Source of the DNA: a virus | DNA: 64,000 bases | Virus record (IMG/VR): IMGVR_UViG_3300008453_000627 | Reading direction: 5' to 3' (one strand) | Shown: one piece after another, positions 34,184 to 47,958 of the stretch | Layout: every line of letters begins with the position of its first letter | How positions within the stretch are numbered: the stretch's first letter is position 1 | Program-made: the position numbers and the translations under genes | Notes under the pieces: generated by a model | What the model was told of the DNA's origin: nothing | Seen by the model: only the letters and a program-made list of their open reading frames with translations | Databases searched by the model: none

Positions 34184-35188
34184 TTATTTAATTTGTGTCC
34201 AAACACGTTCACGTATTTGCTTTGTTAGTGCATCCGGTAATGGAACATAGTCTAAATCTATGGCATCCTTTTTACCATTCTTAAATGCCCAATCAAAGAA
34301 CTTTAATACTTCATCGCTAGTGGCTTTGTTTTTTGGCTCTTTGTACATAATGATAAAACTTGCTGAACTGACAGGCCAGGCATTAGGATTCTTTTGATCC
34401 ACAATACTCAATCCCATACCCGGAATACTGAACCAATCAGCACCATCGGCTGCGGCAGCAAATGTTAAATCATCTGGACTTACATACTTGCCTGCTTTGT
34501 TTTGTAGCTGTAGAAACACCATGTTGTTCTTTTTAACATAGGCATACTCTACATAGCCAATTGATCCTTTGATACGGTTCACGTTGGCTGCAACACCCTC
34601 ATTGCCCTTGCCACCTACTGAATTGGCAGCTGGCCATTTGACTGCGGCACCGCGACCCACACGGGCCAACCATTCAGGGCTTACTGTGCTTAGATAGTCT
34701 GTCCAGTTGAATGTAGTGCCACTTCCATCAGCACGATGCACAATGGTGATTTCAGTGTTGGGCAAGGCCTTGCCCGGGTTTAATGCTGTTAATTTTGGGT
34801 CATTCCAACGGGAAATCGTGCCCATAAACACTTCAGCCATTACAGGCCCTGTGATGCGTAGTTCTCCGGGCTTGATGCCGTCTAGATTGATCACGGGCAC
34901 TGTGCCGCCTATGATTGCGGGGAACTGCACTTGGCCTTGCTTATCTAAGTTCTCGCCACTTACGGGTGCATCTGTAGCGCCAAAGTCCACTGTGCGAGCA
35001 TTGATTTGACGTATGCCGCCCGATGATCCAATTGATTGATAGTTTAGTGTTCGGCCAGTAGCGTTCTTGTATCCTTCGGCCCATTTAGAATAAACGGGGA
35101 ATGGAAAGGTAGCACCCGCACCCACCATGTCCGTAGCACCAGCTGTGATGGCCACAGAGGCCAGTAACATTGACAGTAATCGTTTCAT
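34184..35188 (-). CDS. pstS: phosphate ABC transporter substrate-binding protein PstS
   Basis: signal peptide; GAGATFPFPVYSKWAEGYKNATG…LNYQSIGSSGGIRQI…DFGATDAP matches the PstS phosphate-binding signature. Confidence 0.85.
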   Translation of the reverse strand: MKRLLSMLLASVAITAGATDMVGAGATFPFPVYSKWAEGYKNATGRTLNYQSIGSSGGIRQINARTVDFGATDAPVSGENLDKQGQVQFPAIIGGTVPVINLDGIKPGELRITGPVMAEVFMGTISRWNDPKLTALNPGKALPNTEITIVHRADGSGTTFNWTDYLSTVSPEWLARVGRGAAVKWPAANSVGGKGNEGVAANVNRIKGSIGYVEYAYVKKNNMVFLQLQNKAGKYVSPDDLTFAAAADGADWFSIPGMGLSIVDQKNPNAWPVSSASFIIMYKEPKNKATSDEVLKFFDWAFKNGKKDAIDLDYVPLPDALTKQIRERVWTQIK

Positions 35189-36904: not shown

Positions 36905-37178
36905 CTTTCTGAGATTTCAGCAGGGGTCAGCCAGCCATTGTGGTAATACTTTTGTGTTAAGGTAAAACCTTTCGCGCACCCTCGCCGTCCATCCCGCTTT
37001 ATAGTGCTTCGAACCTTTCTTGTTCAGCTGTGCTGTTTTCTTATTATGCATTAATTATAGCACCGTTTGGCTCAACCGTCAACCGGTAACCCTATAACCC
37101 TTAAGGGCTTTGGGTCTTTGATTGCGCTGTGAGCCAAAAGACAGTACAATATACACTTAAACAGCAAAAAGGAACACA

Positions 37179-37430
37179 ATGCAAAACGTATACACTGCAA
37201 ACACTGCAAAAGCTAAACTTGTGTTTAACAAACAAAAAGAAACGTATACTATTGTTATAGCTTTTAACGTTACAGAAACTAACGCAAACGGCAAACTAAA
37301 GTTTCCGCCTCGTGCTAAATGCGACTTTGTTAGCGGAGAATTTGTATACGAAAGTTTGCAAGCAGACAAAGAACGTATACTTTCAGTTGCACACAAGCAA
37401 CTGCGTACAGATTTAATAGAATTTGTTTAA
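37179..37430 (+). CDS. hypothetical early protein
   Basis: 83 aa; promoter-like TTGATT…TACAAT upstream; terminator hairpin downstream. Confidence 0.5.
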   Translation: MQNVYTANTAKAKLVFNKQKETYTIVIAFNVTETNANGKLKFPPRAKCDFVSGEFVYESLQADKERILSVAHKQLRTDLIEFV

Positions 37431-37435
37431 TTTAA

Positions 37436-37460
37436 CCCTACAGCCTGTAAGGGCTTTTTA
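37436..37460 (+). terminator. rho-independent terminator
   Basis: CCCTACAGcctGTAAGGG hairpin followed by CTTTTTAT. Confidence 0.5.
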
Positions 37461-37468
37461 TAGCGCAT

Positions 37469-37497
37469 TTGACACTGTAGCCAAAATGCGTTATAAT
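37469..37497 (+). promoter_or_regulatory. early promoter cassette (TTGACA-N17-TATAAT)
   Basis: ttgacactgtagccaaaatgcgttataat. Confidence 0.55.
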
Positions 37498-37520
37498 AAG
37501 TTTTTAACAAGGAGCACAGT

Positions 37521-37673
37521 ATGCAAGACGCTATTAGCACAAAAGATAAACTAACTAGTTTAATGTTGCAAATGCAAGACATTATTATGCAAGATTATGA
37601 GGATAATGTGGATATACAAGATGCATTTAATGCATTAGCAAGTGCTTTTGATTATTATATAGATGAAGAATAA
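37521..37673 (+). CDS. small acidic protein (50 aa)
   Basis: MQDAISTKDKLTSLMLQMQDIIMQDYEDN…; AAGGAG SD; below the ORF-track cutoff. Confidence 0.4.
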   Translation: MQDAISTKDKLTSLMLQMQDIIMQDYEDNVDIQDAFNALASAFDYYIDEE

Positions 37674-37691
37674 TATTATATAATAACAAAG

Positions 37692-37714
37692 ACCCTGCGA
37701 TGTGTAGGGTCTTT
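37692..37714 (+). terminator. terminator-like hairpin
   Basis: ACCCTgcgatgtgtAGGGT then TCTTT. Confidence 0.4.
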
Positions 37715-37716
37715 AG

Positions 37717-37745
37717 TTGACAAGCTAGCCAAAAGGCGCTATAAT
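37717..37745 (+). promoter_or_regulatory. early promoter cassette
   Basis: ttgacaagctagccaaaaggcgctataat. Confidence 0.55.
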
Positions 37746-37775
37746 AGAAGCTTAAACAGTAACAAGGAGCTGATC

Positions 37776-38036
37776 ATGGCAAAAGGACTTTTTCAATTCA
37801 TCGGTGTGTCGCGTCATCCCAATGGTGAAGTGGCGGTTCGTTACGCTAACGATGCAGGTCGTGTGCGTGTGCTGGCTCGCAATGGTCACACTGACATTGA
37901 GTTTATCGAGCTTGAGCGAGCAGAACATGTTGAAGAAGCAATGTCTGCACTGATGGACTTTGTTGAAGACAACGAGCGTATCGATCTGTTGGATGTAGTG
38001 TTCAACGAAGCAGAACGTGTTGGCTTTACTTTTTAA
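37776..38036 (+). CDS. hypothetical protein, paralogue of 44133..44507
   Basis: FIGVSRHPNGEVAVRYANDAGRVRVLARNGHTDIEFIEL vs VVGTSKLNGEMKVRFANDVMRVKVLAKHGHTDINLIEL. Confidence 0.55.
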   Translation: MAKGLFQFIGVSRHPNGEVAVRYANDAGRVRVLARNGHTDIEFIELERAEHVEEAMSALMDFVEDNERIDLLDVVFNEAERVGFTF

Positions 38037-38045
38037 GGAGACTGT

Positions 38046-38396
38046 ATGCGATACTATGACGAGATTGGCTCTTTTGAGCGGGACGGGTTCTTTATCATCG
38101 TAGACAAGAGCTATGAGGACATTGATCCCTGGGACCAGCTTTCAGAGTGTTTTGATGACAGAAAGCAACTGTACGCAGACATTGAGCGTGGCAAGTACGA
38201 TTGGTTCATGTTGCGTGTTCGTGCTATGCTAGACGGGCACGAGCTGGGCTGCTCTTACTTGGGCGGTTGCTTGTACGAAGACGCTCGCGAAGTGCTGACA
38301 GATGGCACTGTTGAAGATCAGCTGATCGAAGTGTTGTTCGAAGCTCGCCAAGAAGTTAAACGATTACGGGAGAAGTTTGATGCGATTGCCCTTTAA
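38046..38396 (+). CDS. hypothetical acidic protein
   Basis: 116 aa, coupled to upstream gene. Confidence 0.5.
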   Translation: MRYYDEIGSFERDGFFIIVDKSYEDIDPWDQLSECFDDRKQLYADIERGKYDWFMLRVRAMLDGHELGCSYLGGCLYEDAREVLTDGTVEDQLIEVLFEARQEVKRLREKFDAIAL

Positions 38397-38613
38397 TGAA
38401 GTACTACAGTGGGCAGGCACTGCCTGCTTCATGGTTATGTATACAACTATGAGCTTCTTCAAAGAACTGCATACACTGCAATTAATTGCCGGATGCATGG
38501 GCGGAGCACTGTTTTTGGTGTGGTCGTTGCGTGTTGCAAATAAACAACAGACCATTGTTAACGTTACCGGAGTAACCATTACGCTCATAGGGTTATATAA
38601 AGCACTTGGTTGA
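38377..38613 (+). CDS. small membrane protein
   Basis: 78 aa, two hydrophobic segments, overlapping start. Confidence 0.45.
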   Translation: MMRLPFNEVLQWAGTACFMVMYTTMSFFKELHTLQLIAGCMGGALFLVWSLRVANKQQTIVNVTGVTITLIGLYKALG

Positions 38614-38638
38614 CACCCTAGCCAAAAGGTCGTATAAT
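38610..38638 (+). promoter_or_regulatory. early promoter cassette
   Basis: ttgacaccctagccaaaaggtcgtataat + acatacatagacaacaaaggagc leader. Confidence 0.55.
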
Positions 38639-38665
38639 ACATACATAGACAACAAAGGAGCTGAT

Positions 38666-38899
38666 ATGCGCGATTACACTGTGAAGCTGTTGGAAATGAT
38701 GGACGAGGGCTTGATCTCTGCAGAAGCTGTGGCAGAGATGGCTTTGGCCTACATGAGCGAAGATGACGTCAAAGACATGGTGCGAAGCAACGATCTTATG
38801 CCTTGGATGGAAAACGACGAAGAGGATGAAGACGAAGAGGAAGAGTGGACTCCGGACAATGCGGACTTCAACGATCCAGGTTCACGCCATCACTATTAA
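38666..38899 (+). CDS. hypothetical acidic protein
   Basis: ORF-track start 38606 is a TTG inside the promoter; the first ATG after the SD is 38666 (MRDYTVKLL…). Confidence 0.5.
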   Translation: MRDYTVKLLEMMDEGLISAEAVAEMALAYMSEDDVKDMVRSNDLMPWMENDEEDEDEEEEWTPDNADFNDPGSRHHY

Positions 38900-38908
38900 G
38901 GAGCGACT

Positions 38909-39190
38909 ATGAAACAAGACTACACACTGTATATCTACAAGGCAGACAAGCGGTGTAAGGCAGGTGAGCGCCTGTTCTCTACAACTGTTTGGACTGGCAC
39001 TGACGACAACGGTATGCGCCGAACTGTGGCAGAGCTGTTTGATCTCTATCCGCCCAGCAAGGGTTGGCGCTTTGATTGGACTCCCAGCATGAAGACTGTT
39101 CGCAACTTAATGTCGGGCAAAGAGATCCAGATCCCGCATGACACACCTCGTTCATGCGATCCTTCAAGCGAACTCTATTGGACCATGTGA
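38909..39190 (+). CDS. hypothetical protein
   Basis: 93 aa, AAGGAG SD. Confidence 0.5.
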   Translation: MKQDYTLYIYKADKRCKAGERLFSTTVWTGTDDNGMRRTVAELFDLYPPSKGWRFDWTPSMKTVRNLMSGKEIQIPHDTPRSCDPSSELYWTM

Positions 39191-39354
39191 TGAAGAACGA
39201 GATTGAAAGATTGAACTTTGTCATCTGGGCTAAGGATCGTTTCCCGGGCTTTACTACAGATTCTAAGCAATACGCCAAAGCCAATCGGGCCTGGCGGGCT
39301 GTGGCTCGTAAAGACCCTATGGTTGACAAGGTTATCAAAACCTGCTATAATTAA
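39190..39354 (+). CDS. hypothetical protein (54 aa)
   Basis: ATGA-type overlap at 39190 (MKNEIERLNF…); track start 39154 overlaps previous gene. Confidence 0.4.
   Translation: MKNEIERLNFVIWAKDRFPGFTTDSKQYAKANRAWRAVARKDPMVDKVIKTCYN
39323..39351 (+). promoter_or_regulatory. early promoter cassette embedded in the 3' end of the preceding ORF
   Basis: ttgacaaggttatcaaaacctgctataat. Confidence 0.5.
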
Positions 39355-39381
39355 GGCTTAAACAGTAACAAGGAGCGATAG

Positions 39382-39648
39382 ATGAAAGCACTACAAGAGT
39401 TCATTGCACAGAAGAATCACTGGAACAGCTTCTTCAACGGCGAGCAGTATGAGATTCGCACTGCCAAAGGTCGTCAGCGTGTCGCAGACATGATTGATGC
39501 GGCCCTTAGTCCTGAGAACTTGACCTGCGATGGGGAACTTCCTCGCGCAGAGGTCAATCGGAGATATAAGGAGCTGATGACTGCGGCCAAGCAGTTGAAG
39601 AAGCTGGACCCTGCCGTTACATTCTACGAATACGAAACGGAGATCTAA
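39382..39648 (+). CDS. hypothetical protein
   Basis: 88 aa. Confidence 0.5.
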   Translation: MKALQEFIAQKNHWNSFFNGEQYEIRTAKGRQRVADMIDAALSPENLTCDGELPRAEVNRRYKELMTAAKQLKKLDPAVTFYEYETEI

Positions 39649-39649
39649 G

Positions 39650-39856
39650 ATGAAAGCCTATGTAACAACTATCCTCCGTCAGGAGTTGGAGGTGCCCGAA
39701 GGCACTACACGAGAAGAGATCTATGACTTCTTTGGCGAGTTCCAATCGTTTAGAACTGCGTTCCAAGGTGTTAGCGGCAATGGTATTACCATTGTTGACT
39801 TGATGGTCTTAGAGGAAGAAGTAACAGAACTTGGAGAGGAGAGCTTCGATGTCTAG
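39650..39856 (+). CDS. hypothetical acidic protein
   Basis: 68 aa. Confidence 0.5.
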   Translation: MKAYVTTILRQELEVPEGTTREEIYDFFGEFQSFRTAFQGVSGNGITIVDLMVLEEEVTELGEESFDV

Positions 39857-39992
39857 ACAAGAGCTTGTTGATCTTGTCTTGGAGCAGATTGCTCAAGACG
39901 TAAAGAACGCAGACTTTACAGCTATTGAAGAGCTGTTACACTTTGTGCCAGAGTCTAACCTTAAATCATACTTGTCAGAAGGACCATACTAA
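39849..39992 (+). CDS. small protein (47 aa)
   Basis: MSRQELVDLVLEQIAQDVKNADFTAIEELLHF…; overlaps both neighbours by coupled start/stops. Confidence 0.4.
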   Translation: MSRQELVDLVLEQIAQDVKNADFTAIEELLHFVPESNLKSYLSEGPY

Positions 39993-39993
39993 T

Positions 39994-40560
39994 ATGCCAA
40001 ACTGGTGTAACAACAGCGTAGAGATCTACCACGATGACCCTAAGATGATTGAGCGGGTGCGAACTGCGTTCAATGGTGAAGGCCTGCTACAAGAGTTCAT
40101 TCCTGTACCAGAAGACCTGCGTAATATCGTAGCAGGATCAGTTCCTGTTGCAGAAGAAGCAGAACACAAACTCAAAGAAGAGTTCAACCGTATCACATAT
40201 GGTTACACTAACTGGTATGACTTCTGTGTCAACGAGTGGGGCACTAAGTGGGAGATTGGTGCTGATGGTAACCCTGCACAGGACATCCCAGGCGGATTGC
40301 TATTGGGCTTTGAATCAGCTTGGGCTCCTCCTTGTGCAGCCTATGAGAAGCTGACAGCTATGGGTTTCCGTATTAAGGCTATGTATTTTGAGCCAGGTAT
40401 GGCATTTGCAGGCATTTGGGAAGACGGTTTCGATGACTACTACGAGTATGGTGGCATGGACTCTACTCAGATTGCCGAGGCGTTGCCTCCAGAGTTAGAC
40501 GAAGCATTTGGTATCTCAGAAGATGTAGCACAGTGGGAAGAAGAGAACAAGGAAGACTAA
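39994..40560 (+). CDS. hypothetical protein with MPNWC N-terminus (possibly DUF1281-like)
   Basis: start placed at ATG 39994 (TAATATG coupling), MPNWCNNSVEIYHDDPKMIERV…. Confidence 0.45.
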   Translation: MPNWCNNSVEIYHDDPKMIERVRTAFNGEGLLQEFIPVPEDLRNIVAGSVPVAEEAEHKLKEEFNRITYGYTNWYDFCVNEWGTKWEIGADGNPAQDIPGGLLLGFESAWAPPCAAYEKLTAMGFRIKAMYFEPGMAFAGIWEDGFDDYYEYGGMDSTQIAEALPPELDEAFGISEDVAQWEEENKED

Positions 40561-40576
40561 TACTTTTTGCTTACAA

Positions 40577-40607
40577 AAACCCGCCGATTGTGCGGGTTTC
40601 TCATTTG
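40577..40607 (+). terminator. rho-independent terminator
   Basis: AAACCCGCcgattgtGCGGGTTT then CTCATTT. Confidence 0.5.
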
Positions 40608-40616
40608 TGCTATAAT
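40588..40616 (+). promoter_or_regulatory. weak-35 promoter (TTGTGC-N17-TATAAT) overlapping the terminator
   Basis: tataat 40611-40616 + acatgcttacacaacgcaataggagc leader. Confidence 0.4.
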
Positions 40617-40646
40617 ACATGCTTACACAACGCAATAGGAGCAAAC

Positions 40647-40994
40647 ATGCAAGCAGTCATTTTTAACACAGCAGGGGACGGCTACTGGAGCCGCACTGCA
40701 AAAGCAGTAGAGATAGTTGACATGCGGATGGGCTATGTTAGCGACGACAAAGAGTTTGGAGAGCTGTGCGTGTATTTTAACACAGCAGATTGGGACGTTA
40801 ATGTAGACGGTCTCATTTATACAGACAGTGAGTTTTTACACGAGCTGAACGCATTTTTAGTTGAGCAGGGCTTGTGTGCTGTAACATATAGCGAGCAGGG
40901 TATGCAGGGCGACAACTATGTGTCGCTAGACGTTGAAGACGAGTTTATTGCACTGTGGGAAGCTAAGTTTAACACAGTACTGGAGGCAATGTAA
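40647..40994 (+). CDS. hypothetical protein
   Basis: start at ATG 40647 after SD (MQAVIFNTAGDGYW…); track start 40533 is upstream of the promoter. Confidence 0.5.
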   Translation: MQAVIFNTAGDGYWSRTAKAVEIVDMRMGYVSDDKEFGELCVYFNTADWDVNVDGLIYTDSEFLHELNAFLVEQGLCAVTYSEQGMQGDNYVSLDVEDEFIALWEAKFNTVLEAM

Positions 40995-41230
40995 TGATTA
41001 CAGCAGACAAGCTAGCCCTACTGACTAACATGCCTGCGGTGATGTTGACAACAGGCATACAGGCTGCAGGCTACAAGAAGGACAAGTTCACAAAGAGCAA
41101 GTTCCTGGGCATAACCAATGCCGGCCTGTTCTGCTACACTGCTACCTACATTGAAGACAATGCAGAGCAGGAGTGCAAAGTCTTTGTCAAGTATGACCCT
41201 ACAGCGGATAGGGTTTCGGTTGACTACTGA
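40994..41230 (+). CDS. hypothetical protein
   Basis: 78 aa, TAATG overlap. Confidence 0.5.
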   Translation: MITADKLALLTNMPAVMLTTGIQAAGYKKDKFTKSKFLGITNAGLFCYTATYIEDNAEQECKVFVKYDPTADRVSVDY

Positions 41231-41248
41231 GCCAAAAGGCCTTATAAT
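41220..41248 (+). promoter_or_regulatory. early promoter cassette
   Basis: ttgactactgagccaaaaggccttataat + acatacatcgacaacgcaattaggagc. Confidence 0.55.
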
Positions 41249-41281
41249 ACATACATCGACAACGCAATTAGGAGCGAAACT

Positions 41282-41551
41282 ATGCTAACAACTAAACAAG
41301 TCCGTGCTATTATCGCACAACATTCCACCAGCACCTACGGAGTGTACACAAACAAAACTAAATCCGACGCTTCAAATATTCGTCGTGTCAAGTGTTATTT
41401 CCGGGGTAATACTAAACTGCTAATCGCACTGCAAAAAGCAGCCGGCAAACAAAACGTTACACTTACAGAAGGTGGAGACAGTTACTACAGCGGCGGGCCG
41501 GGCATTATTGTTAAGTGCGTTTTAGAAGACGCTACAACTGCTCCTTTTTAA
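41282..41551 (+). CDS. hypothetical protein
   Basis: 89 aa. Confidence 0.5.
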   Translation: MLTTKQVRAIIAQHSTSTYGVYTNKTKSDASNIRRVKCYFRGNTKLLIALQKAAGKQNVTLTEGGDSYYSGGPGIIVKCVLEDATTAPF

Positions 41552-41562
41552 TAACCCTTCGG

Positions 41563-41591
41563 TTGACAGGGTTACCAAAAGACGCTATAAT
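41563..41591 (+). promoter_or_regulatory. early promoter cassette with -35 inside a stem-loop (AACCCTtcggttgacAGGGTT)
   Basis: ttgacagggttaccaaaagacgctataat. Confidence 0.55.
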
Positions 41592-41622
41592 ACATACATC
41601 AACAACGCACTAAGGAGCAAAG

Positions 41623-41889
41623 ATGAGCAACTATCCTAACATGAGTTACTGCATGAACGAGAACACACTGCTGGCGCTGAAGCAGGTGCTGGACGCTATG
41701 CAAGAGGAAGGCCCGCAGTTCCTGCGTGAGCTGTCGCGTGATGAGCGCCGTAGCTTTGAGGCACTGTTTAACATGTGCGAAGACTTTATGTCGCTGAGCG
41801 AGGAACTGCAAGCAGAGTACGAGCAAGAAGAGCGTGATGGCCAGCCCGACGAAGCGCAAGAGTGGGCAGACTTTGATCCGGAGTGCTAA
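41623..41889 (+). CDS. hypothetical acidic protein
   Basis: 88 aa. Confidence 0.5.
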   Translation: MSNYPNMSYCMNENTLLALKQVLDAMQEEGPQFLRELSRDERRSFEALFNMCEDFMSLSEELQAEYEQEERDGQPDEAQEWADFDPEC

Positions 41890-41900
41890 AGGGTTTTTGG

Positions 41901-41929
41901 TTGACGCATTAGCCAAAATGCGTTATAAT
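41901..41929 (+). promoter_or_regulatory. early promoter cassette
   Basis: ttgacgcattagccaaaatgcgttataat. Confidence 0.55.
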
Positions 41930-41954
41930 TAACACTTAACAACAAAGGAACAAA

Positions 41955-42140
41955 ATGAATAACGTGTACATTGTACAAGGTCTGGGCTTCGGAGACTACG
42001 AGAACTGTTTTTACAACTTGCAAGCATTTGCTACTAAAGCAGCCGCACTGAGCCACATTGCTGTTTTGCAAGCAGAGGACGAATCTAACGACAGCGGCCC
42101 GCAAGAGTACACTGTAGAGGAAGTGTTATTCACCCTGTAA
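41955..42140 (+). CDS. hypothetical protein
   Basis: 61 aa. Confidence 0.45.
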   Translation: MNNVYIVQGLGFGDYENCFYNLQAFATKAAALSHIAVLQAEDESNDSGPQEYTVEEVLFTL

Positions 42141-42154
42141 GCTGTAGGGTCTTT
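42132..42154 (+). terminator. terminator-like hairpin
   Basis: ACCCTgtaagctgtAGGGT then CTTT. Confidence 0.35.
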
Positions 42155-42156
42155 GG

Positions 42157-42185
42157 TTGACATAAGCGCCAAAAGGCCTTATAAT
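42157..42185 (+). promoter_or_regulatory. early promoter cassette
   Basis: ttgacataagcgccaaaaggccttataat. Confidence 0.55.
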
Positions 42186-42216
42186 ACATACATACTGAAA
42201 CACAAAGGAGCTTGAA

Positions 42217-42642
42217 ATGGGAACACGAAGCACTATCGCACTTGAATTTGCAGACGGCACAGTAGAGCAAGTCTACTGTCACTGGGACGGTTACTTGAGC
42301 AACAATGGACAGATCCTTGCTCGTTACTACATGGACCCGTTCAAAGTCAAAGAACTGCTGGCGCTGGGAGCGTTCTCTAGCTTAGAGGATACTGTTGAGG
42401 GAACTAAGACAGGCGCTTATCATCACTGGCGCGGTGAAGAGATTGTAATCAACAAATACAAGAACGCAGACGAATACTTTGACTGCTCACAGCAAGAAGA
42501 GTACGACTACATCCTGCGCAATGTCAACGGCAAAGCCGTTTGGTTCGTTCGTTATTACGAGTCAGAGAACACTTGGATGCCGTTGGAAGAGGCGTTTATC
42601 GACGAGCAAGATCGTATTGCACAAGAGGAGACAGAAGAATGA
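42217..42642 (+). CDS. hypothetical protein
   Basis: 141 aa. Confidence 0.5.
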   Translation: MGTRSTIALEFADGTVEQVYCHWDGYLSNNGQILARYYMDPFKVKELLALGAFSSLEDTVEGTKTGAYHHWRGEEIVINKYKNADEYFDCSQQEEYDYILRNVNGKAVWFVRYYESENTWMPLEEAFIDEQDRIAQEETEE

Positions 42643-42824
42643 GCGCGATTAAAGATTTGAGTTATGATATCCAAGAGATGTTCATTGACGGTGCGGATGC
42701 TACACATATCGCATTCATGTTGAAGGTTCCGTTGGATGAAGTTCAGAAGGTGTTGAATAGCTTTGGGGTTAGTGACGAGGATATTGTTGCAGACGAACCT
42801 TATAGTCCCTACAACGGAGCATAA
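42639..42824 (+). CDS. hypothetical protein (61 aa)
   Basis: ATGA overlap start (MSAIKDLSYDIQEMF…); track start 42540 overlaps upstream gene out of frame. Confidence 0.45.
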   Translation: MSAIKDLSYDIQEMFIDGADATHIAFMLKVPLDEVQKVLNSFGVSDEDIVADEPYSPYNGA

Positions 42825-42834
42825 ACCCTACAGG

Positions 42835-42863
42835 TTGACGGGTTTCTCCTTTGGTGTTATAAT
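42835..42863 (+). promoter_or_regulatory. early promoter cassette, -35 in stem-loop (AAACCCtacaggttgacGGGTTT)
   Basis: ttgacgggtttctcctttggtgttataat. Confidence 0.5.
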
Positions 42864-42887
42864 TGATACATGAAAAGGAGAAAAGCA

Positions 42888-43010
42888 ATGCAACTGACAA
42901 TACCCGTGCGTCGCCCAGTGTGTCGCACTCCTATTAAACCCAAACAGGCGCACAAGATAGCAACTCGTTATCAACGCAAGCCAAAGCATAAAGGACGCAC
43001 ACATGATTGA
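42888..43010 (+). CDS. small basic protein (40 aa)
   Basis: MQLTIPVRRPVCRTPIKPKQAHKIATRYQRKPKHKGRTHD; SD AAAAGGAG; overlaps next start. Confidence 0.35.
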   Translation: MQLTIPVRRPVCRTPIKPKQAHKIATRYQRKPKHKGRTHD

Positions 43011-43242
43011 GATTACAATCGAAGGACTGAATGCACGTCAACGTGCCCTGGCTGACATCATCTGGGCATGTGACAATCAAAAGCAGGTCAACGAGTTTAT
43101 TCGCAGCCTGCCTACGATTCGACTGCAAGACGAAGCAAAGACCATCGTAAGCCTTATGATTATGGCAACTGTAGAACAATGCTACGATGGCATAGGCGAT
43201 ATGCCCGAAGCACAACAACTGATCGATAAGGTCCTAAAATGA
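43003..43242 (+). CDS. hypothetical protein
   Basis: 79 aa. Confidence 0.5.
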   Translation: MIEITIEGLNARQRALADIIWACDNQKQVNEFIRSLPTIRLQDEAKTIVSLMIMATVEQCYDGIGDMPEAQQLIDKVLK

Positions 43243-43364
43243 AATCAACTATCTATTACAGCAAACGAAACTTCACTACAGATACTCTGCCCGAAGTTAC
43301 TAAGAGCAAACTGGTCTATGACTTTATTGCACTCTTAGCCGTTATGAAGGTTTGGGCACGGTGA
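43239..43364 (+). CDS. small protein (41 aa)
   Basis: MKSTIYYSKRNFTTDTLPEV…; ATGA overlap. Confidence 0.3.
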   Translation: MKSTIYYSKRNFTTDTLPEVTKSKLVYDFIALLAVMKVWAR

Positions 43365-43375
43365 GCCGCCTTGCA

Positions 43376-43618
43376 ATGTACGGCAGGCCCTATGTGATCT
43401 TTAATCCTGCTAATCAAGATCATAGGAAATGGTTTGCCAACTTTAATAAGACAGGTGCATGGGGTTCGTGTCCAGTTCGATTCGTAGTCAACGACGATCA
43501 CGGCGATTTGATCACTATGATCCAGCGCGAATTGATCCAATATTACGTGGACAAAGAGTTCTCTAAACCCAGTACTGTTGCAAAAAAACAACGGCAAAAA
43601 AGCCTAGTTTTTGGTTGA
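43376..43618 (+). CDS. hypothetical protein
   Basis: first ATG of ORF 43352..43618 (MYGRPYVIFNPANQDHRKW…); track start is TTG. Confidence 0.4.
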   Translation: MYGRPYVIFNPANQDHRKWFANFNKTGAWGSCPVRFVVNDDHGDLITMIQRELIQYYVDKEFSKPSTVAKKQRQKSLVFG

Positions 43619-43643
43619 CACTGGCGCCAAAAGGCGTTATAAT
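43615..43643 (+). promoter_or_regulatory. early promoter cassette
   Basis: ttgacactggcgccaaaaggcgttataat. Confidence 0.55.
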
Positions 43644-43675
43644 TGATACATCAACAACGCACTAAGGAGCACTAA

Positions 43676-44026
43676 ATGACAGCAGTAGCATTTGACGTAG
43701 AGGCAGTTCAGAACGCAACTAACGAAGCCGCAATGGCCGCTCGTACCGCAGTGAAACAAGCCTATGCCGCACTAGGTGGCGATCGTGGCCCTTGTGGCTT
43801 TGCTTGGGTTAACGTTTGGGGCGTCCGCTCTAACAGCAAGCTCGGCAACGCACTCAAGGCCGCAGGCTTCCGCAAGGACTACACGGGTGCATTGAGTCTG
43901 TGGAATCCAGGCAAAGCGGCTGCTCAAAGCATTGACATTCTGGAAGCAGGTGCCTATGCTTACGCAGAGGTTTTGAAAGAGAAGTTGGGTTTGGAGAAGG
44001 TCTACGCAGGTTCGCGTATGGATTGA
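43676..44026 (+). CDS. hypothetical protein
   Basis: 116 aa. Confidence 0.5.
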   Translation: MTAVAFDVEAVQNATNEAAMAARTAVKQAYAALGGDRGPCGFAWVNVWGVRSNSKLGNALKAAGFRKDYTGALSLWNPGKAAAQSIDILEAGAYAYAEVLKEKLGLEKVYAGSRMD

Positions 44027-44051
44027 TTTTGCCAAAAGGGGTTGACCGCAA

Positions 44052-44080
44052 CCCCGATTGGTGTTACAATAGAAACATGT
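44052..44080 (+). promoter_or_regulatory. promoter (TTGACC-N17-TACAAT) with long hairpin-containing leader
   Basis: ttgaccgcaaccccgattggtgttacaat; leader has ATGTCCaaaaGGACAT hairpin. Confidence 0.45.
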
Positions 44081-44132
44081 CCAAAAGGACATAAGGCAAT
44101 TAACTTAAATTAACTTGAAAAGGCAAAATAAA

Positions 44133-44507
44133 ATGGCAACAGATAAACTGTTTACGGTAGTTGGTACTTCTAAGCTCAATGGTGAGATGAAGGTTCGCTT
44201 TGCGAACGATGTGATGCGTGTTAAGGTGCTGGCAAAGCACGGACACACTGACATTAACCTTATTGAGTTGGATACTCCAATGACCAAGCTTGAGGCTGTA
44301 AAAGTTCTCAAGACTGCGGACGAGTTCCAAGGCGCCGCAGAGCAAAGCGCAATCGCTGACTATCTCGATCGCAAGGACGAGACACCCGCCAAAGCTACAA
44401 AGGCTGTGGCACCTGCTAAGACTGCAACGGTCAAGGCTCCCAAAGTCAAAGCTGCTATCAAAGCATCTAAGATTGACACTAGCGAGATGGAAGACGCTCC
44501 ATTCTAA
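44133..44507 (+). CDS. hypothetical protein, paralogue of 37776..38036, Ala/Lys-rich C-terminal tail
   Basis: start at first ATG 44133 (MATDKLFTVVG…); track start 44115 is TTG. Confidence 0.5.
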   Translation: MATDKLFTVVGTSKLNGEMKVRFANDVMRVKVLAKHGHTDINLIELDTPMTKLEAVKVLKTADEFQGAAEQSAIADYLDRKDETPAKATKAVAPAKTATVKAPKVKAAIKASKIDTSEMEDAPF

Positions 44508-44546
44508 TCTACAGCACCGTATCGCTGAGCATCATAAATACACTCT

Positions 44547-44741
44547 ATGCGATACGGTGTTTCCCAATCAAACGATTATCAACAAGTTGGCGCAGTGGTC
44601 ATCAGAGACTTCCTTAGTGAACCTAAGGGCCGAGTCCTTTGCGTGATCGCTCGCGACAACCTCTACGAAGCAGAGCAGACAGCACAATACCTCTGCGATT
44701 TATTAAACAAAGAAGAAAAACATGCCCTGGGTTCAGTATGA
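44547..44741 (+). CDS. hypothetical protein
   Basis: 64 aa; the ATG lies at the base of an 11-bp inverted repeat. Confidence 0.45.
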   Translation: MRYGVSQSNDYQQVGAVVIRDFLSEPKGRVLCVIARDNLYEAEQTAQYLCDLLNKEEKHALGSV

Positions 44742-44922
44742 AGTTTGGAGTGTCGACGAACTTGGACACGAAGAAATCATTGACACAACTAACAGTCTAA
44801 AAGAAGCAAATCAATTGGCGGATGTAACGCTAAATGATGTTGACAACGGCATTGTAGAGTGTATAATATACAAAGAGACAGAAGGCGAGCTTGAAGAAGT
44901 CGCTGTGGTAGTTAGGGATTGA
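44722..44922 (+). CDS. hypothetical acidic protein
   Basis: 66 aa; contains the tRNA-cluster promoter in its 3' part. Confidence 0.45.
   Translation: MPWVQYEVWSVDELGHEEIIDTTNSLKEANQLADVTLNDVDNGIVECIIYKETEGELEEVAVVVRD
44840..44867 (+). promoter_or_regulatory. sigma70-like promoter (TTGACA-N16-TATAAT) upstream of the tRNA cluster
   Basis: ttgacaacggcattgtagagtgtataat inside the coding sequence, 60 nt before tRNA-Leu. Confidence 0.45.
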
Positions 44923-44927
44923 TCAAT

Positions 44928-45012
44928 GCTCGGATGGTGAAATAGGTAGACACAAGAGACTTAAAATCTCTCGCTGAAAGGCGTGCCGGTTCGATTCCGG
45001 CTCCGAGCACCA
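44928..45012 (+). tRNA. tRNA-Leu (anticodon TAA), class II long variable arm
   Basis: acceptor GCTCGGA/TCCGAGC, anticodon loop CTTAAAA, T-loop TTCGATT, variable arm cgctgaaaggcgtg, encoded CCA. Confidence 0.8.
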
Positions 45013-45056
45013 AGAATACCAAAGTAAATTTACAGGGAATACCAAAGTAAATTTAT

Positions 45057-45133
45057 CTGACTGTAGCTCAACTGGATAGAGCAACAGCCTTCTAAGCTGT
45101 AGGTCGGGGGTTCGAGTCCCTCCAGTCAGGCCA
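45057..45133 (+). tRNA. tRNA-Arg (anticodon TCT)
   Basis: acceptor CTGACTG/CAGTCAG, D-arm TAGCTCAACTGGATAGAGC, anticodon loop CTTCTAA, T-loop TTCGAGT, CCA end. Confidence 0.8.
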
Positions 45134-45138
45134 GTTTA

Positions 45139-45216
45139 GGGCCTCTAGCTCATGTTGGTTAGAGCAGTGGACTCATAATCCATTGGTGCGGAGTTCGACT
45201 CTCCGGGGGCCCACCA
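45139..45216 (+). tRNA. tRNA-Met or Ile2 (anticodon CAT), elongator-type G1:C72
   Basis: acceptor GGGCCTC/GGGGCCC, D-arm TAGCTCATGTTGGTTAGAGC, anticodon loop CTCATAA, T-loop TTCGACT, CCA end. Confidence 0.75.
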
Positions 45217-45236
45217 TTCATCTAAAGGAGCACATT

Positions 45237-45410
45237 ATGGCAGGCAAAGCGAAATCAATATACCTTACAATCTTGCCCAAAGGCAAGCATATGAGCGTTT
45301 TTAAGAAGGTATTCTTCGAAGCCAAATCCTATAACGAATACGTCAAGACCGACGAATTCAAAGCCAAATGGCCCAAAGAAGAGTTCGACATTGTAAAAGA
45401 AACCTATTAA
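45237..45410 (+). CDS. hypothetical basic protein (57 aa)
   Basis: AAAGGAG SD then ATG 45237 (MAGKAKSIYLT…); the track ORF start overlaps tRNA-Met and is rejected. Confidence 0.45.
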   Translation: MAGKAKSIYLTILPKGKHMSVFKKVFFEAKSYNEYVKTDEFKAKWPKEEFDIVKETY

Positions 45411-45418
45411 CCCTTTGG

Positions 45419-45447
45419 TTGACAGGGTCTTTGTTTGGTGCTATAAT
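45419..45447 (+). promoter_or_regulatory. early promoter cassette (stem ACCCTttggttgacAGGGT)
   Basis: ttgacagggtctttgtttggtgctataat + acatacatagacaagcaaggagc. Confidence 0.55.
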
Positions 45448-45474
45448 ACATACATAGACAAGCAAGGAGCTGAT

Positions 45475-45690
45475 ATGGGATACAAGGTTGTAGCAGATCG
45501 AGAGCAGATGGACATGATGCGTGTCAAATACGGTCCACGCAAGGGCTTAGAAGGCCCCTTCAACTTCTCCGGCAGAGTGTTGTATTATGACAACAAAGAG
45601 GGTCAGTACTACGATCCTACTACAGACTTCTACGTAGAGGAAGACGAAATGTCCATGATCCGTGAAGGGTTTTTGACACAGTTCGCTTGA
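45475..45690 (+). CDS. hypothetical protein
   Basis: first ATG 45475 (MGYKVVADREQ…); track start 45415 is TTG within the promoter. Confidence 0.5.
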   Translation: MGYKVVADREQMDMMRVKYGPRKGLEGPFNFSGRVLYYDNKEGQYYDPTTDFYVEEDEMSMIREGFLTQFA

Positions 45691-45715
45691 CAGCCTGACT
45701 GTTTGGCGTTATAAT
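45687..45715 (+). promoter_or_regulatory. early promoter cassette overlapping the upstream stop codon
   Basis: ttgacagcctgactgtttggcgttataat + agatacatagacagcaacaaggagc. Confidence 0.55.
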
Positions 45716-45747
45716 AGATACATAGACAGCAACAAGGAGCGAACCAA

Positions 45748-46041
45748 ATGGCTAAACTATTGATCCAAACCCAAGTGTACGAGAACTACGGTACGGCTGA
45801 TGAGCCTTACTGGAAACCCAAAGGCGGTGCAGACTACGTGGTCAAGAAGTTCAAAGACTTCAACAAGGTCACTGAAACTGTGATGGCCCTGCGCTCACAG
45901 ATCGAGCAGGACAACGAATACTACCGCGAGCACATCATCAACTTCGAAGTTGTGGCCAACGACTACATGACAGACTTTGAGAAGGATCAGTGGGAATACG
46001 AAGGCAAAATCACTTATCCCGCAAAGGAGTTGGCATGGTAA
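45748..46041 (+). CDS. hypothetical protein
   Basis: 97 aa. Confidence 0.5.
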   Translation: MAKLLIQTQVYENYGTADEPYWKPKGGADYVVKKFKDFNKVTETVMALRSQIEQDNEYYREHIINFEVVANDYMTDFEKDQWEYEGKITYPAKELAW

Positions 46042-46130
46042 TCAATCAAGCAATCATCAATCTGCTGATCGTGCTGGCGCCGATCTGGATCATGGGAATA
46101 GCCCTACTGGTTGACTGGTTATTCAATTGA
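46035..46130 (+). CDS. small hydrophobic peptide (31 aa)
   Basis: MVINQAIINLLIVLAPIWIMGIALLVDWLFN; ATGGTAA overlap; contains the next promoter -35. Confidence 0.3.
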   Translation: MVINQAIINLLIVLAPIWIMGIALLVDWLFN

Positions 46131-46139
46131 GTATATAAT
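46111..46139 (+). promoter_or_regulatory. early promoter cassette
   Basis: ttgactggttattcaattgagtatataat + acatacatagacaagcaaggagc. Confidence 0.5.
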
Positions 46140-46166
46140 ACATACATAGACAAGCAAGGAGCGAAG

Positions 46167-46388
46167 ATGATTAGAGAGCACATTGAGATGGATACACGAC
46201 ATGGTGGTCCATACGATCGCGGTACAGCCGACAGCTACTACCGCAGAAGCTATAACCCTCACTATTACAAGGGCGACACTGGTAACTCACCTCGTGTAAC
46301 GCTCAAAGACATGACACCCGACGAGATCGTGGCCTACACCGCAGGCTATCGCGACAACGAAGATGAAGGCAACTTCAAAGAGTATTAA
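46167..46388 (+). CDS. hypothetical protein
   Basis: 73 aa. Confidence 0.5.
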   Translation: MIREHIEMDTRHGGPYDRGTADSYYRRSYNPHYYKGDTGNSPRVTLKDMTPDEIVAYTAGYRDNEDEGNFKEY

Positions 46389-46399
46389 TAACCCTTTGG

Positions 46400-46428
46400 T
46401 TGACAGGGTTACCAAAAGACGTTATAAT
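46400..46428 (+). promoter_or_regulatory. early promoter cassette (stem AACCCTttggttgacAGGGTT)
   Basis: ttgacagggttaccaaaagacgttataat. Confidence 0.55.
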
Positions 46429-46453
46429 TAACACATAGCAACAAGGAACTAAG

Positions 46454-46687
46454 ATGAACAAATATCAGAAACAAGCATTGGTAGATATGGGCAAGGTCGC
46501 CCTGGCAGTTGTAGCAGGTATTGCCGCAATTAACGCCGTGATCATGCTGGGCATGTCAGCAGGTGATGTAGCCGGCGCGATCAGTTTGGTGGCCATGGGT
46601 TACTGTGTCTATCAACTCTACTTGATCCGTGTGGGTCAGCTGGAGAGCCAGGATCGTTTGAACGACATTGAGAAGAAGTACAAATAA
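46454..46687 (+). CDS. small membrane protein
   Basis: 77 aa, two TM segments. Confidence 0.5.
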   Translation: MNKYQKQALVDMGKVALAVVAGIAAINAVIMLGMSAGDVAGAISLVAMGYCVYQLYLIRVGQLESQDRLNDIEKKYK

Positions 46688-46696
46688 CCCTAGTGG

Positions 46697-46725
46697 TTGA
46701 CAGGTTATCGTTTTGGCAGTATAAT
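46697..46725 (+). promoter_or_regulatory. early promoter cassette
   Basis: ttgacaggttatcgttttggcagtataat + acatacatattaacacaaaagggagc. Confidence 0.55.
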
Positions 46726-46758
46726 ACATACATATTAACACAAAAGGGAGCGACCCAA

Positions 46759-47142
46759 ATGGCTAAAGTAAATTATGACAAGTTTGCCTCGTTTGACATT
46801 AACGAGTGCTGTGATCACTTTGACAGTGAGAAGCAGAGCAACTGGAAGAAGATTGGCAAGTTCATCGTAGCAGATGGACAGGACTATGCCCATATTATGG
46901 AAACAGAGTTTGACTTTGAAGATGTAGGCAATGGCGAGTATGCGGCCTTTGAGGCAGGTGTTAAGTATGCACTGACCAAGATGAACATTGCTTTTGAAGC
47001 GGCTGCTGTAGACTTGCAGATCTGCGAGGTAGACTTGGTAGAGAGCATGGGCTTTATGATGGTACGTTGCGATGACGAGCCAGAGGACTTTGTCAAGCGG
47101 GTTATGAAGAAGCCTGTTATGATGGTAGACAGCTGGTGCTAA
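46759..47142 (+). CDS. hypothetical acidic protein
   Basis: first ATG 46759 (MAKVNYDKFASF…); track start 46693 is GTG within the promoter. Confidence 0.5.
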   Translation: MAKVNYDKFASFDINECCDHFDSEKQSNWKKIGKFIVADGQDYAHIMETEFDFEDVGNGEYAAFEAGVKYALTKMNIAFEAAAVDLQICEVDLVESMGFMMVRCDDEPEDFVKRVMKKPVMMVDSWC

Positions 47143-47202
47143 CAGTTTGCCAATGTGTCAGCCTATCACTAGACCCTGCAACACGCCCGGGCACTTCGTA
47201 GG

Positions 47203-47231
47203 TTGACACAAAGGCTTTTTGACAGTATAAT
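47203..47231 (+). promoter_or_regulatory. early promoter cassette with ~125-nt leader
   Basis: ttgacacaaaggctttttgacagtataat. Confidence 0.5.
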
Positions 47232-47360
47232 AGAGACATAGTAAGAAGCAAGGCGATCCTCAAATGTAAGAACCCAGCAGAGATGCAAAAAGGGTTGTAA
47301 CCAAGGGATACGAAGCGAGTTTGGAGACTCGGCCTAAGCCAACATGCACAGGAGCGAACC

Positions 47361-47555
47361 ATGCAAGTACACTTTATCAACACAGGAACCAAAGAAGACT
47401 TTGGCTTTAGAGAAGTCAACGTAGAAGCCTTCAAGTTGGATCACGACAATGCTCCTTATTGCATCGTTAGCAATCCATTTTTCCCGGGCGAAAGTCTACG
47501 TGCAGAGTACAACTTCTATAACGATTGCCTGCAATGGGTGGTTGACATAGATTGA
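47361..47555 (+). CDS. hypothetical protein
   Basis: 64 aa, GGAGCG SD. Confidence 0.5.
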   Translation: MQVHFINTGTKEDFGFREVNVEAFKLDHDNAPYCIVSNPFFPGESLRAEYNFYNDCLQWVVDID

Positions 47556-47570
47556 TTTTGACAGTATAAT
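47542..47570 (+). promoter_or_regulatory. early promoter cassette embedded in 3' end of upstream ORF
   Basis: ttgacatagattgattttgacagtataat + agacacatcaacaacgcaaataggagc. Confidence 0.55.
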
Positions 47571-47602
47571 AGACACATCAACAACGCAAATAGGAGCGAA
47601 CT

Positions 47603-47881
47603 ATGAACGTACAGCAGATCAATACAGCCCTGGTAACAGGTTCTTTCACCAACGATCAACTGGCAAGTGTGATCGATGCAGTCAAGTTTGCTCGTAGCCG
47701 TTTGGCACAGACTACAAAGAGCACTCTGCGAGTAGGCGACAATGTCAACTTTACCTCTAGCAAAACCGGACAGAACATGACAGGTTTTGTTACAAAGATT
47801 GCCATTAAATATGTAACAGTCAAAACAATGAACGGCTTGTGGCGTGTGCCAGCTAACATGCTGAACAAGGTTGAAGCCTAA
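47603..47881 (+). CDS. hypothetical protein
   Basis: 92 aa. Confidence 0.5.
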   Translation: MNVQQINTALVTGSFTNDQLASVIDAVKFARSRLAQTTKSTLRVGDNVNFTSSKTGQNMTGFVTKIAIKYVTVKTMNGLWRVPANMLNKVEA

Positions 47882-47899
47882 TTACAGAACTAATAGAGC

Positions 47900-47928
47900 T
47901 TGACAACAGGCTCTATTGATGCTATAAT
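47900..47928 (+). promoter_or_regulatory. early promoter cassette with -35 in loop of 8-bp hairpin (AATAGAGCttgacaacagGCTCTATT)
   Basis: ttgacaacaggctctattgatgctataat. Confidence 0.55.
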
Positions 47929-47958
47929 TACTTTTTTAAACAACATTGGAGCGAAACA

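Follow-up and report, generated by a model that had tools for sequence, protein, structure and literature searches.

Composite early-promoter cassettes that separate small genes have been described as promoter-early stem-loops (PeSLs) in the phages RB49 and phi1 (PMC2839356), and were reported together with promoter-middle stem-loops (PmSLs) for the pairs nt-1/KVP40 and PST/T4 (PMC4122927). Their definition allows five stem-loop positions, namely upstream of the promoter, over the −35 box, between the boxes, over the −10 box, and downstream (PMC2839356, PMC4122927). The description of PeSLs further includes a stem-loop acting as a terminator or attenuator, and mini-circles of cassette plus ORF that form during infection. 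An array resembling these cassettes was analyzed in the IMG/VR virus record IMGVR_UViG_3300008453_000627, of which a stretch of 64,000 nucleotides (nt), hereafter the window, was covered; all coordinates are positions in this window, and the array region is a 10.8-kb stretch of its plus strand. We consider it rather likely that this region is a hyperplastic early-gene block, in which approximately 22 composite cassettes of the PeSL type, each about 60–75 nt from stop codon through start codon, separate approximately 35 small ORFan genes, and in which the modules have been shuffled by recombination.

The window contains 18 exact copies of TTGACA-N17-TATAAT against 0.01 expected from shuffled sequences, and 14 of them are located on the plus strand between 37469 and 47928. 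When one mismatch was allowed, 18 plus-strand copies were obtained over the same 10.5 kb (Table 1), all with a spacer of 17 nt, as an earlier note on this DNA had stated; four degenerate copies read directly from the sequence (37122, 40588, 44042, and 44840, the last with a 16-nt spacer) brought the number of cassettes to 22, so that the note's count of about 20 is correct. An independent scan recovered the 18 sites and returned 42 promoter-like sites versus 18.1 ± 3.7 in shuffles; its 12/12 matches were all on the plus strand, and so were the 11/12 matches except one. Alignment on the −35 box gave the consensus ttGG-TTGACA-...t..CCAAAAGgcg.-TATAAT-a.ATACATa.acA...AAGGAGC. The conserved flanks are thus ttGG 5′ of the −35 box, a spacer with CCAAAAG or a T-rich version of it, and A.ATACATa.acA...AAGGAGC 3′ of the −10 box, of which the last two had already been pointed out. 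It had been supposed that the copies are near-identical, which they are not: over the 57-nt core, two copies agree at 56% of positions on average (45% once the hexamers are left out) and at 79% at most.

The 3′ end of the cassette is AAGGAG(C), placed 5–9 nt before the ATG. A curated map holds approximately 35 plus-strand genes with starts led by a Shine–Dalgarno (SD) sequence. Single small genes had been proposed as the targets, which applies to 13 of the 21 cassettes, the remaining ones driving 2 to 4 genes. The upstream gene often ends within the cassette, its stop being the TGA inside TTGACA, a codon inside the spacer, or the TAA that opens a hairpin arm TAACC(CT). The overlap with the preceding open reading frame (ORF) that the earlier note had listed was found at 45687, 46111, and 47542, and is doubtful at 39323, where the ORF in question (39154–39354) has no SD and may not be a gene. 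As for the two minus-strand copies it had listed, the rIIA promoter indeed shares the block after the −10 box, and the other (35683–35655) shares only the hexamers.

The proposed order of elements begins with the stop of the preceding gene and, in many cassettes, a hairpin 5′ of or around the −35 box; then come a near-consensus host sigma-70 promoter G-TTGACA-N17-TATAAT, a conserved A/C discriminator ACAYAC, a start region C(−1)A(+1)T(+2), a G-poor 5′ untranslated region (UTR) of approximately 24 nt, AAGGAG, and the start codon. These promoters would fire early with the unmodified host RNA polymerase, with +1 predicted at the 7th nt after the −10 box, and the subset of hairpins with a T-run should attenuate read-through. 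The block after the −10 box would help RNA polymerase to initiate at, and to leave, a consensus promoter that binds very tightly, would also favor efficient translation, and would not act as a signal at the RNA level. The shared cassette core of approximately 40–60 nt may provide patches of homology, through which phage recombination could insert, delete, and swap promoter-plus-gene modules with their neighbors undisturbed.

Most of this anatomy recurs in the described systems. As in RB49 and phi1 (PMC2839356), the promoters are near-perfect TTGACA-N17-TATAAT, the stem-loop varies in position and may overlap the −35 box, an SD and ATG form the 3′ end, the cassettes are densely arrayed among ORFans in hyperplastic regions, and closely related phages differ by indels of a cassette with its ORF. 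The stretch that follows the −10 box is shared too, reading ACACMCAT in RB49 and ACAYACAT here, whereas the UTR and SD differ (...AGGAGAATCAAAATG in RB49 and ...CAACAAGGAGC here). The stems differ as well, being AACCCT/AGGGTT here, often with the upstream TAA stop taken in, whereas those of RB49 read GGGGATC..GATCCCC and are placed between the −35 box and the −10 box; the genome carrying the array is also a distant mosaic one of the T4 superfamily, unlike RB49 and phi1. As in nt-1/KVP40 and PST/T4 (PMC4122927), the segments that vary most hold an unbroken series of small ORFs with a cassette in front of each, and "degraded" half-cassettes are present. The promoters of those phages are weaker (TTGYVH..TAWWAT and TTTACW..TAYWAT), whereas the consensus here is almost perfect, and the nt-1 stem A3-4G3-loop-C3T3-4 places G before C, whereas C precedes G here. 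No Mot-box (middle-promoter) version of the cassette was seen here, unlike the PmSLs of that report. The T4-like early promoters (Nolan et al. 2006, PMC1524935) share the G at −36, the preference for C at −3 to −1, and the location before novel ORFs and tRNA genes, whereas their A-rich UP-like element at −40 to −44 is not detectable here, the information being approximately zero upstream of −38. On this comparison, the stop-incorporating AACCCT/AGGGTT stems, the tGG 5′ of the −35 box, and the CCAAAAG spacer flavor are lineage-specific features. The array is a solid further example of the known PeSL phenomenon; of the PeSL features readable from sequence, the AT-rich tract is the one that is absent.

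Hairpins accompany the promoters more often than expected. The region from −45 to +23 of the 18 cassettes has a minimum free energy of −16.2 versus −11.0 kcal/mol in random windows (p = 2e-6), and 16 of the 18 contain an uninterrupted perfect stem of 5 bp or more, approximately 10 of them convincing (6–9 bp or with a T-run). One group lies 5′ of the −35 box with its T-run abutting the box, and the other encloses the box, with the 3′ arm in the spacer; the latter had been noticed before, and it was found at six cassettes (Table 1). As an architecture it was not retained as new, because the 2010 PeSL paper already contains the overlap subclass (PMC2839356). Among 364 cassettes of the whole family, 9.6% have a stem of 7 bp or more that spans the −35 box, versus 2.9 ± 0.9% of chimeric controls, in which the upstream and promoter halves of cassettes were recombined at random. 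The arm sequences are diverse across the family, so that complementarity itself is maintained. Many dispersed copies with inverted repeats could also be read as autonomous, self-transposing mobile elements of the miniature inverted-repeat transposable element or homing type. This is extremely improbable: neither the position nor the sequence of the repeats is constant, target-site duplications and terminal inverted repeats of a set length are absent, the block encodes no transposase or homing endonuclease, and the cassettes always have one orientation, fit exactly into the gaps between genes, and carry an SD and ATG.

The cassette is not unique to this region. The pattern GGTTGACA-N17-TATAATANATACAT occurs in at least 118 IMG/VR stretches, versus 17 and 16 for two composition-matched controls, and 33 related loci (related IMG/VR contigs and loci bear L-numbers below) contain 285 distinct cassettes. 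Many loci have 10–23 consensus promoters per approximately 12 kb. The distance from the −10 box to the ATG has a median of 30 nt in 239 of the 285. The related loci encode homologues (30–100% amino acid (aa) identity) of approximately 30 of the 35 small-gene families in strongly altered order, in which the sub-blocks g04–05, g08–11, g12–13, g17–18, and g28–30 are kept. The earlier suggestion of a PeSL-type, hyperplastic, and shuffled region is borne out by this re-ordering and by the pair L112 and L039, whose flanks are 99.5–100% identical and which differ by one clean 222-nt module of cassette plus ORF.

Breakpoints were located from the boundaries of high-scoring segment pairs, linkage, and close pairs, which were used in place of a non-significant junction test; none of the available relatives exceeds 92% identity to the window itself. 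A block of 92% identity with L034 (39368–40556) starts in the leader of P39323, the cassette named for the start of its −35 box, and ends at the stop codon of g11. A second L034 block (42184–42629) begins in the −10 box of P42157, and a block shared with L068 (41557–41905) runs from P41563 to P41901. In a swap of alleles between L100 and L110, the right breakpoint falls between the −35 box and the −10 box of a cassette. Among cross-genome cassette pairs, sharing of the upstream gene goes with higher identity of the upstream flank (35% vs 26%) and sharing of the downstream gene with higher identity of the leader (39% vs 32%), whereas the identity of the spacer is raised only if both neighbors are shared (51% vs 34%). 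This indicates that the module junction lies inside the promoter core.

A different explanation of the likeness is that the cassettes are independent strong early promoters without any special role, made alike by selection for maximal early expression (consensus hexamers, a good start site, an unstructured leader, and a strong SD), and that generic recombination shuffles a non-essential region. This is rather unlikely, because the functionally relaxed positions of the spacer also carry a genomic signature: spacers of one genome are slightly but significantly more alike (38.6% identity) than those of different genomes (34.6%; permutation p < 0.001), and CCAAAAG occurs in 9 of 19 spacers of the window versus 0–3 per relative, L009 and L102 favoring GGTAAAACC. 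Such genome-specific flavors are a mark of concerted evolution, and CCAAAAG was rejected as a functional motif on the same counts. The paralogous cassettes are also mosaics of one another, as in P41563, whose left part matches P46400 at 41 of 43 nt and whose right part (leader) matches P43615 at 26 of 28 nt. Both observations speak against independent promoters, and the same applies to the clean module indel between nearly identical genomes, the breakpoint exactly between the two boxes, and the junction placed in the promoter core by linkage.

Several points weigh against the reading of the array as recombining PeSL-type modules, and the first two of them speak for independent promoters. Of five recent events between near-identical relatives, two break in a cassette, one at an SD micro-homology, and two within genes, so that three are not via cassettes. 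Adjacency is retained at 20% of the cassette-bearing junctions versus 30% (p = 0.07, with non-independent loci), which is a weak association of breakpoints with cassettes. Independent promoters are further favored by the presence of the block after the −10 box in unrelated-looking viral contigs and in RB49, which fits functional convergence. A breakpoint in a cassette is moreover not fully separable from one between genes, because the intergenic space is almost wholly cassette. The AT-rich tract found 5′ of the −35 box in published PeSLs is absent: measured at −25 to −4, the AT content is 57% against 54% for the region, whereas it is 79% against 60% for the genome in RB49. A T-run follows approximately 7 of the 18 window hairpins and, family-wide, 11 of 70 stems, so that termination is plausible only for a subset. 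Finally, the transcription start sites (TSSs), the promoter strength, and the terminator function are all predicted, and the TSS-spacing rules assumed are those of the E. coli type, which may not be those of the host. Because the junction test gives only a trend and three of the five events lie elsewhere, the cassettes would be one recombination substrate among several, which agrees with the contribution of non-PeSL recombination reported by Comeau et al. 2014 (PMC4122927).

In the micro-homology event among these five, two 97% identical genomes (L009:4742–4974 vs L109:2297–2323) are set apart by the clean loss of 206 nt with the g09 homologue. The deletion is bounded by two SD regions of the form GAGGAGA..ATG, which shows SD micro-homology as an alternative indel substrate within operons.

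The stretch following the −10 box was examined across the 285 family cassettes, whose consensus is tGG-TTGACA-...-TATAAT-ACAYACAT. The percentages of this block are A81 C53 A84 Y82 A74 C79 A68/T32 T86, an A-rich and T-poor stretch follows, and the consensus is also seen in the 236 cassettes that lie outside the pattern used for the search. G is found at −36 in 71–76% and C at −1 in 75–79%. RB49 PeSLs carry ACACACAT at the matching place, within TATAMT-ACACMCAT-C/A...AGGAGAATCAAAATG, and the RB49 early-promoter consensus, with G at −36 and C at −3 to −1, agrees with 5′-end mapping (PMC1524935). In 38 cassettes of relatives, an ATG lies exactly at the 7th nt after the −10 box; for at least 19 of them it begins an ORF 50 to >131 codons long that has no SD-led start nearby. 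Their simplest reading is as leaderless mRNAs, which would place +1 at the A of the 7th nt. ACAYAC is thus probably untranscribed discriminator DNA and not RNA, because it is anchored to the −10 box at a fixed distance, upstream of the predicted +1. The RNA leader that remains is approximately 24 nt long, A/C-rich, and poor in G before the SD (8.8% vs 24.9% for the region), and it is unstructured, the first 50 nt folding at −3.6 versus −8.4 kcal/mol (p = 5e-9). The whole is most likely an initiation and escape module joined to a mini-UTR optimized for translation. The N25 promoter of phage T5, one of the strong coliphage early promoters, reads TATAAT-AGATTC-ATAAAT; it is a tight promoter, and its initial transcribed sequence governs how the polymerase escapes. 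It resembles the TATAAT-AGATAC-ATAGAC found here, which may be a functional parallel; common descent of the two is without support.

The earlier note had suggested that the conserved leader is a shared post-transcriptional signal, which is unsupported as it was stated. Such a signal could be a RegB-like endoribonuclease site that shuts off all early mRNAs together or a shared site for a translational repressor or S1, and it would be compatible with the PeSL-type explanation. The SD nearly always reads AAGGAGC and precedes A-rich sequence, with little structure around it, which resembles, at the level of sequence, the RegB/S1 target, a single-stranded GGA followed by an A-rich 8-nt tail (PMC1702504). 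We regard this as quite unlikely to account for the conservation, since ACAYAC, the best-conserved part, is located upstream of the predicted +1 and tied to the −10 box rather than to the SD, the remainder being unstructured UTR and SD, and since the putative leaderless genes use the same cassette without any SD. A RegB or RegA homologue was not encountered, although no search for one was made and the window covers 64 kb of a genome of roughly 200 kb. For the SD part, a RegB-type cleavage signal of GGA plus A-rich sequence is possible.

There is also a small chance that the likeness of ACAYAC|A(+1)T does not merely stem from common descent and that it forms a promoter element of its own, specific to phages. 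Such a discriminator and initial-transcribed module would let RNA polymerase escape perfect-consensus promoters or would mark phage early promoters for a modified polymerase. This would fit the sharing of the ACAYAC block by the PeSLs of RB49, a phage of E. coli, and a distant aquatic lineage, its enrichment of at least 7-fold in viral contigs over composition-matched controls, the near-absence of the full pattern, with five occurrences, from 596 Gb of bacterial genomes, and the launching of both SD-led and putative leaderless mRNAs by the same module.

Several further observations concern this block. A second group of viral contigs (L010, L026, L033, L042, L050, L067, L075, and others) has a near-invariant promoter GGTTGACAATAAATGGATTTGGGTATATAATACATACATAGACAGTTAA and the same block after the −10 box in front of different genes, so that the ACATACAT signature reaches beyond the lineage of the window. 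A conserved 112-aa family (MTQT..RKKRVDRNH..) has its ATG at the predicted +1 of a cassette without an SD, giving a putative leaderless mRNA, in L102 (minus strand, offset 401), L009 (1746), L113, L109, L100, L024, L012, and L056. P42835 has two possible starts (42870–43010), an ATG at the predicted +1 (42870) and, in the same frame, an SD-led one at 42888, and in the degenerate P44042 an ATG at this place opens a 5-codon mini-ORF, MSKRT*, before g24 (44077–44094).

Modular shuffling of the PeSL type, described for three pairs of cultured phages, is extended by this array to an uncultivated and large branch of the T4 superfamily, in which over 30 related metagenomic contigs were found. Quantitative support is added by the junction inside the promoter core, the concerted evolution of spacers, and the clean indel of cassette plus ORF, and the PeSL model is tempered in that the cassettes would share their role with other recombination substrates. 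The "conserved leader" of such cassettes would be largely promoter DNA (discriminator and start site), with the same signature in RB49; this re-interpretation and the scale of the comparative evidence are the main added value. The ORFans driven by the cassettes are candidates for host-takeover or anti-defense genes, and the cassettes, as compact and insulated expression units predicted to be very strong, could serve as parts for synthetic biology.

The array block lies between a PstS-like gene and a gp41-type helicase, and its right end is anchored in 30 related loci by a conserved 285-aa gene (PHROG 1250). Among 25 block proteins, 17 are without a PHROG and the other 8 have matches to PHROGs of unknown function only, and Rfam returned three tRNAs only for 36–49 kb. 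Elsewhere in the window, rIIA matches PHROG 612 at 2.9e-129, a virion protein is 38% identical to its counterparts in T4-like cyanophages, and the helicase is closest to that of the Pseudomonas jumbo phage PA5oct (55%). No close DNA relative was found among 50,697 GenBank phage records; when GenBank phages were searched by megablast and blastn with the region and with a consensus cassette of 68 nt, tRNA matches and one 18-nt match were all that was returned, the short query making this a weak test. Because of these protein matches and the lack of a close DNA relative in GenBank, the source is a distant, mosaic, uncultivated phage of the T4 superfamily. The five full-pattern matches in bacterial genomes, sought for host inference, fall in unrelated metagenome-assembled genomes and are uninformative on the host.

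Table 1. Cassettes and neighboring features of the window. P with a number denotes a cassette by the start of its −35 box; g numbers denote genes.
Feature	Coordinates	Strand	Promoter	Hairpin or dyad	Upstream stop	Leader, genes, and remarks
rIIA promoter	27460–27432	−	TTGACT-N17-TATAAT			then AGATACATAG
PstS-like gene	34184–35188	−				phosphate-binding protein, PHROG 5385, 2.7e-63
Promoter	35683–35655	−
Promoter of divergent pair	37082–37054	−	TTGACG-N17-TATAAT
P37122 (degenerate)	37122–37178	+	TTGCGC-N17-TACAAT (−10 at 37145–37150)			GCCAAAAG signature in spacer; drives g01 (37179–37430)
P37469	37442–37520	+	TTGACA-N17-TATAAT	5′ of −35, AGCC..GGCT + TTTTT (37442–37455), T-run abutting −35		then g02 (37521)
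P37717	37688–37775	+		5′ of −35, 9 bp, AAAGACCCT/AGGGTCTTT, T-run abutting −35		drives g03–g05
P38610	38610–38665	+	TTGACA		TGA of TTGACA (g05)	leader ACATACATAGACAACAAAGGAGC
P39323	39323–39381	+	extended −10 TGc			drives g08–g11
P40588 (degenerate)	40577–40646	+	TTGTGC-N17-TGcTATAAT	terminator hairpin AAACCCGC/GCGGGTTT containing the promoter		cassette-type leader; drives g12–g13
P41220	41196–41281	+	TTGACT	5′ of −35, ACCCTA/TAGGGT, T-run abutting −35	in spacer (g13)
P41563	41552–41622	+		around −35, 7 bp, TAACCCT/AGGGTTA, 3′ arm in spacer	TAA of 5′ arm (g14)
P41901	41901–41954	+	TTGACG	spacer dyad ACGCATT/AATGCGT
P42157	42132–42216	+		5′ of −35, terminator-like, ACCCT..AGGGT + CTTTGG, T-run abutting −35		drives g17–g18
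P42835	42823–42887	+	TTGACG	around −35, AAACCC/GGGTTT, 3′ arm in spacer		T-rich spacer
P43615	43615–43675	+	TTGACA	TTTTGG/CCAAAA dyad around −35	TGA of TTGACA (g22)
P44042 (degenerate)	44038–44132	+	TTGACC-N17-TACAAT	promoter within GGGGTTG..CAACCCC		5′ of g24
P44840 (degenerate)	44840–44867	+	TTGACA-N16-TATAAT			60 nt 5′ of tRNA-Leu; likely promoter of the tRNA cluster
tRNA-Leu(TAA), tRNA-Arg(TCT), tRNA-Met(CAT)	44928–45216	+				embedded in the array
P45419	45410–45474	+		around −35, ACCCT/AGGGT, 3′ arm in spacer, then CTTTGTTTGG; predicted terminator overlapping promoter	TAA of 5′ arm
P45687	45687–45747	+	TTGACA		TGA of TTGACA (g28)
P46111	46111–46166	+	TTGACT		in spacer (preceding ORF)
P46400	46389–46453	+		around −35, TAACCCT/AGGGTTA, 3′ arm in spacer	TAA of 5′ arm
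P46697	46684–46758	+		around −35, ATAACC/GGTTAT, 3′ arm in spacer, then CGTTTTGG	TAA of 5′ arm
P47203	47203–47360	+		none		123-nt untranslated leader before g33
P47542	47542–47602	+		none	in spacer (g33)
P47900	47892–47958	+		around −35, 8 bp, AATAGAGC/GCTCTATT, 3′ arm in spacer		drives 285-aa gene
gp41-type helicase	51379–52827	−
Nol-like carbamoyltransferase	52843–54312	−				PHROG 1601, 8.9e-96

The PstS-like protein and the Nol-like carbamoyltransferase are auxiliary metabolic genes flanking the block, which suggest an aquatic, phosphate-limited setting. PA5oct, by its helicase the nearest cultured relative, has the same three anticodons one after another in its list of tRNAs (PMC7318152), and EBPR podovirus 3 has a tRNA with 91% identity to the tRNA-Leu of the window. 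At the left end of the array (37050–37150), a perfect 10-bp palindrome CCCTTAAGGG is flanked by a divergent promoter pair, formed by the minus-strand promoter at 37082–37054 and the degenerate plus-strand cassette P37122, and this interval marks the switch from minus- to plus-strand transcription. A structured small RNA or riboswitch was considered for the leader of P47203 and rejected, because Rfam gave no match for it and shuffled sequences fold equally well (z = −0.43). This non-coding leader (47232–47360) is 81% conserved in two related contigs (L039:12173–12312 and L112:2674–2813). The interval of approximately 130 nt between g07 and P39323 (39190–39378) has no SD-led gene, yet it is 88.6% identical to L039:4735–4923, a value exceeding that of most neighboring genes.

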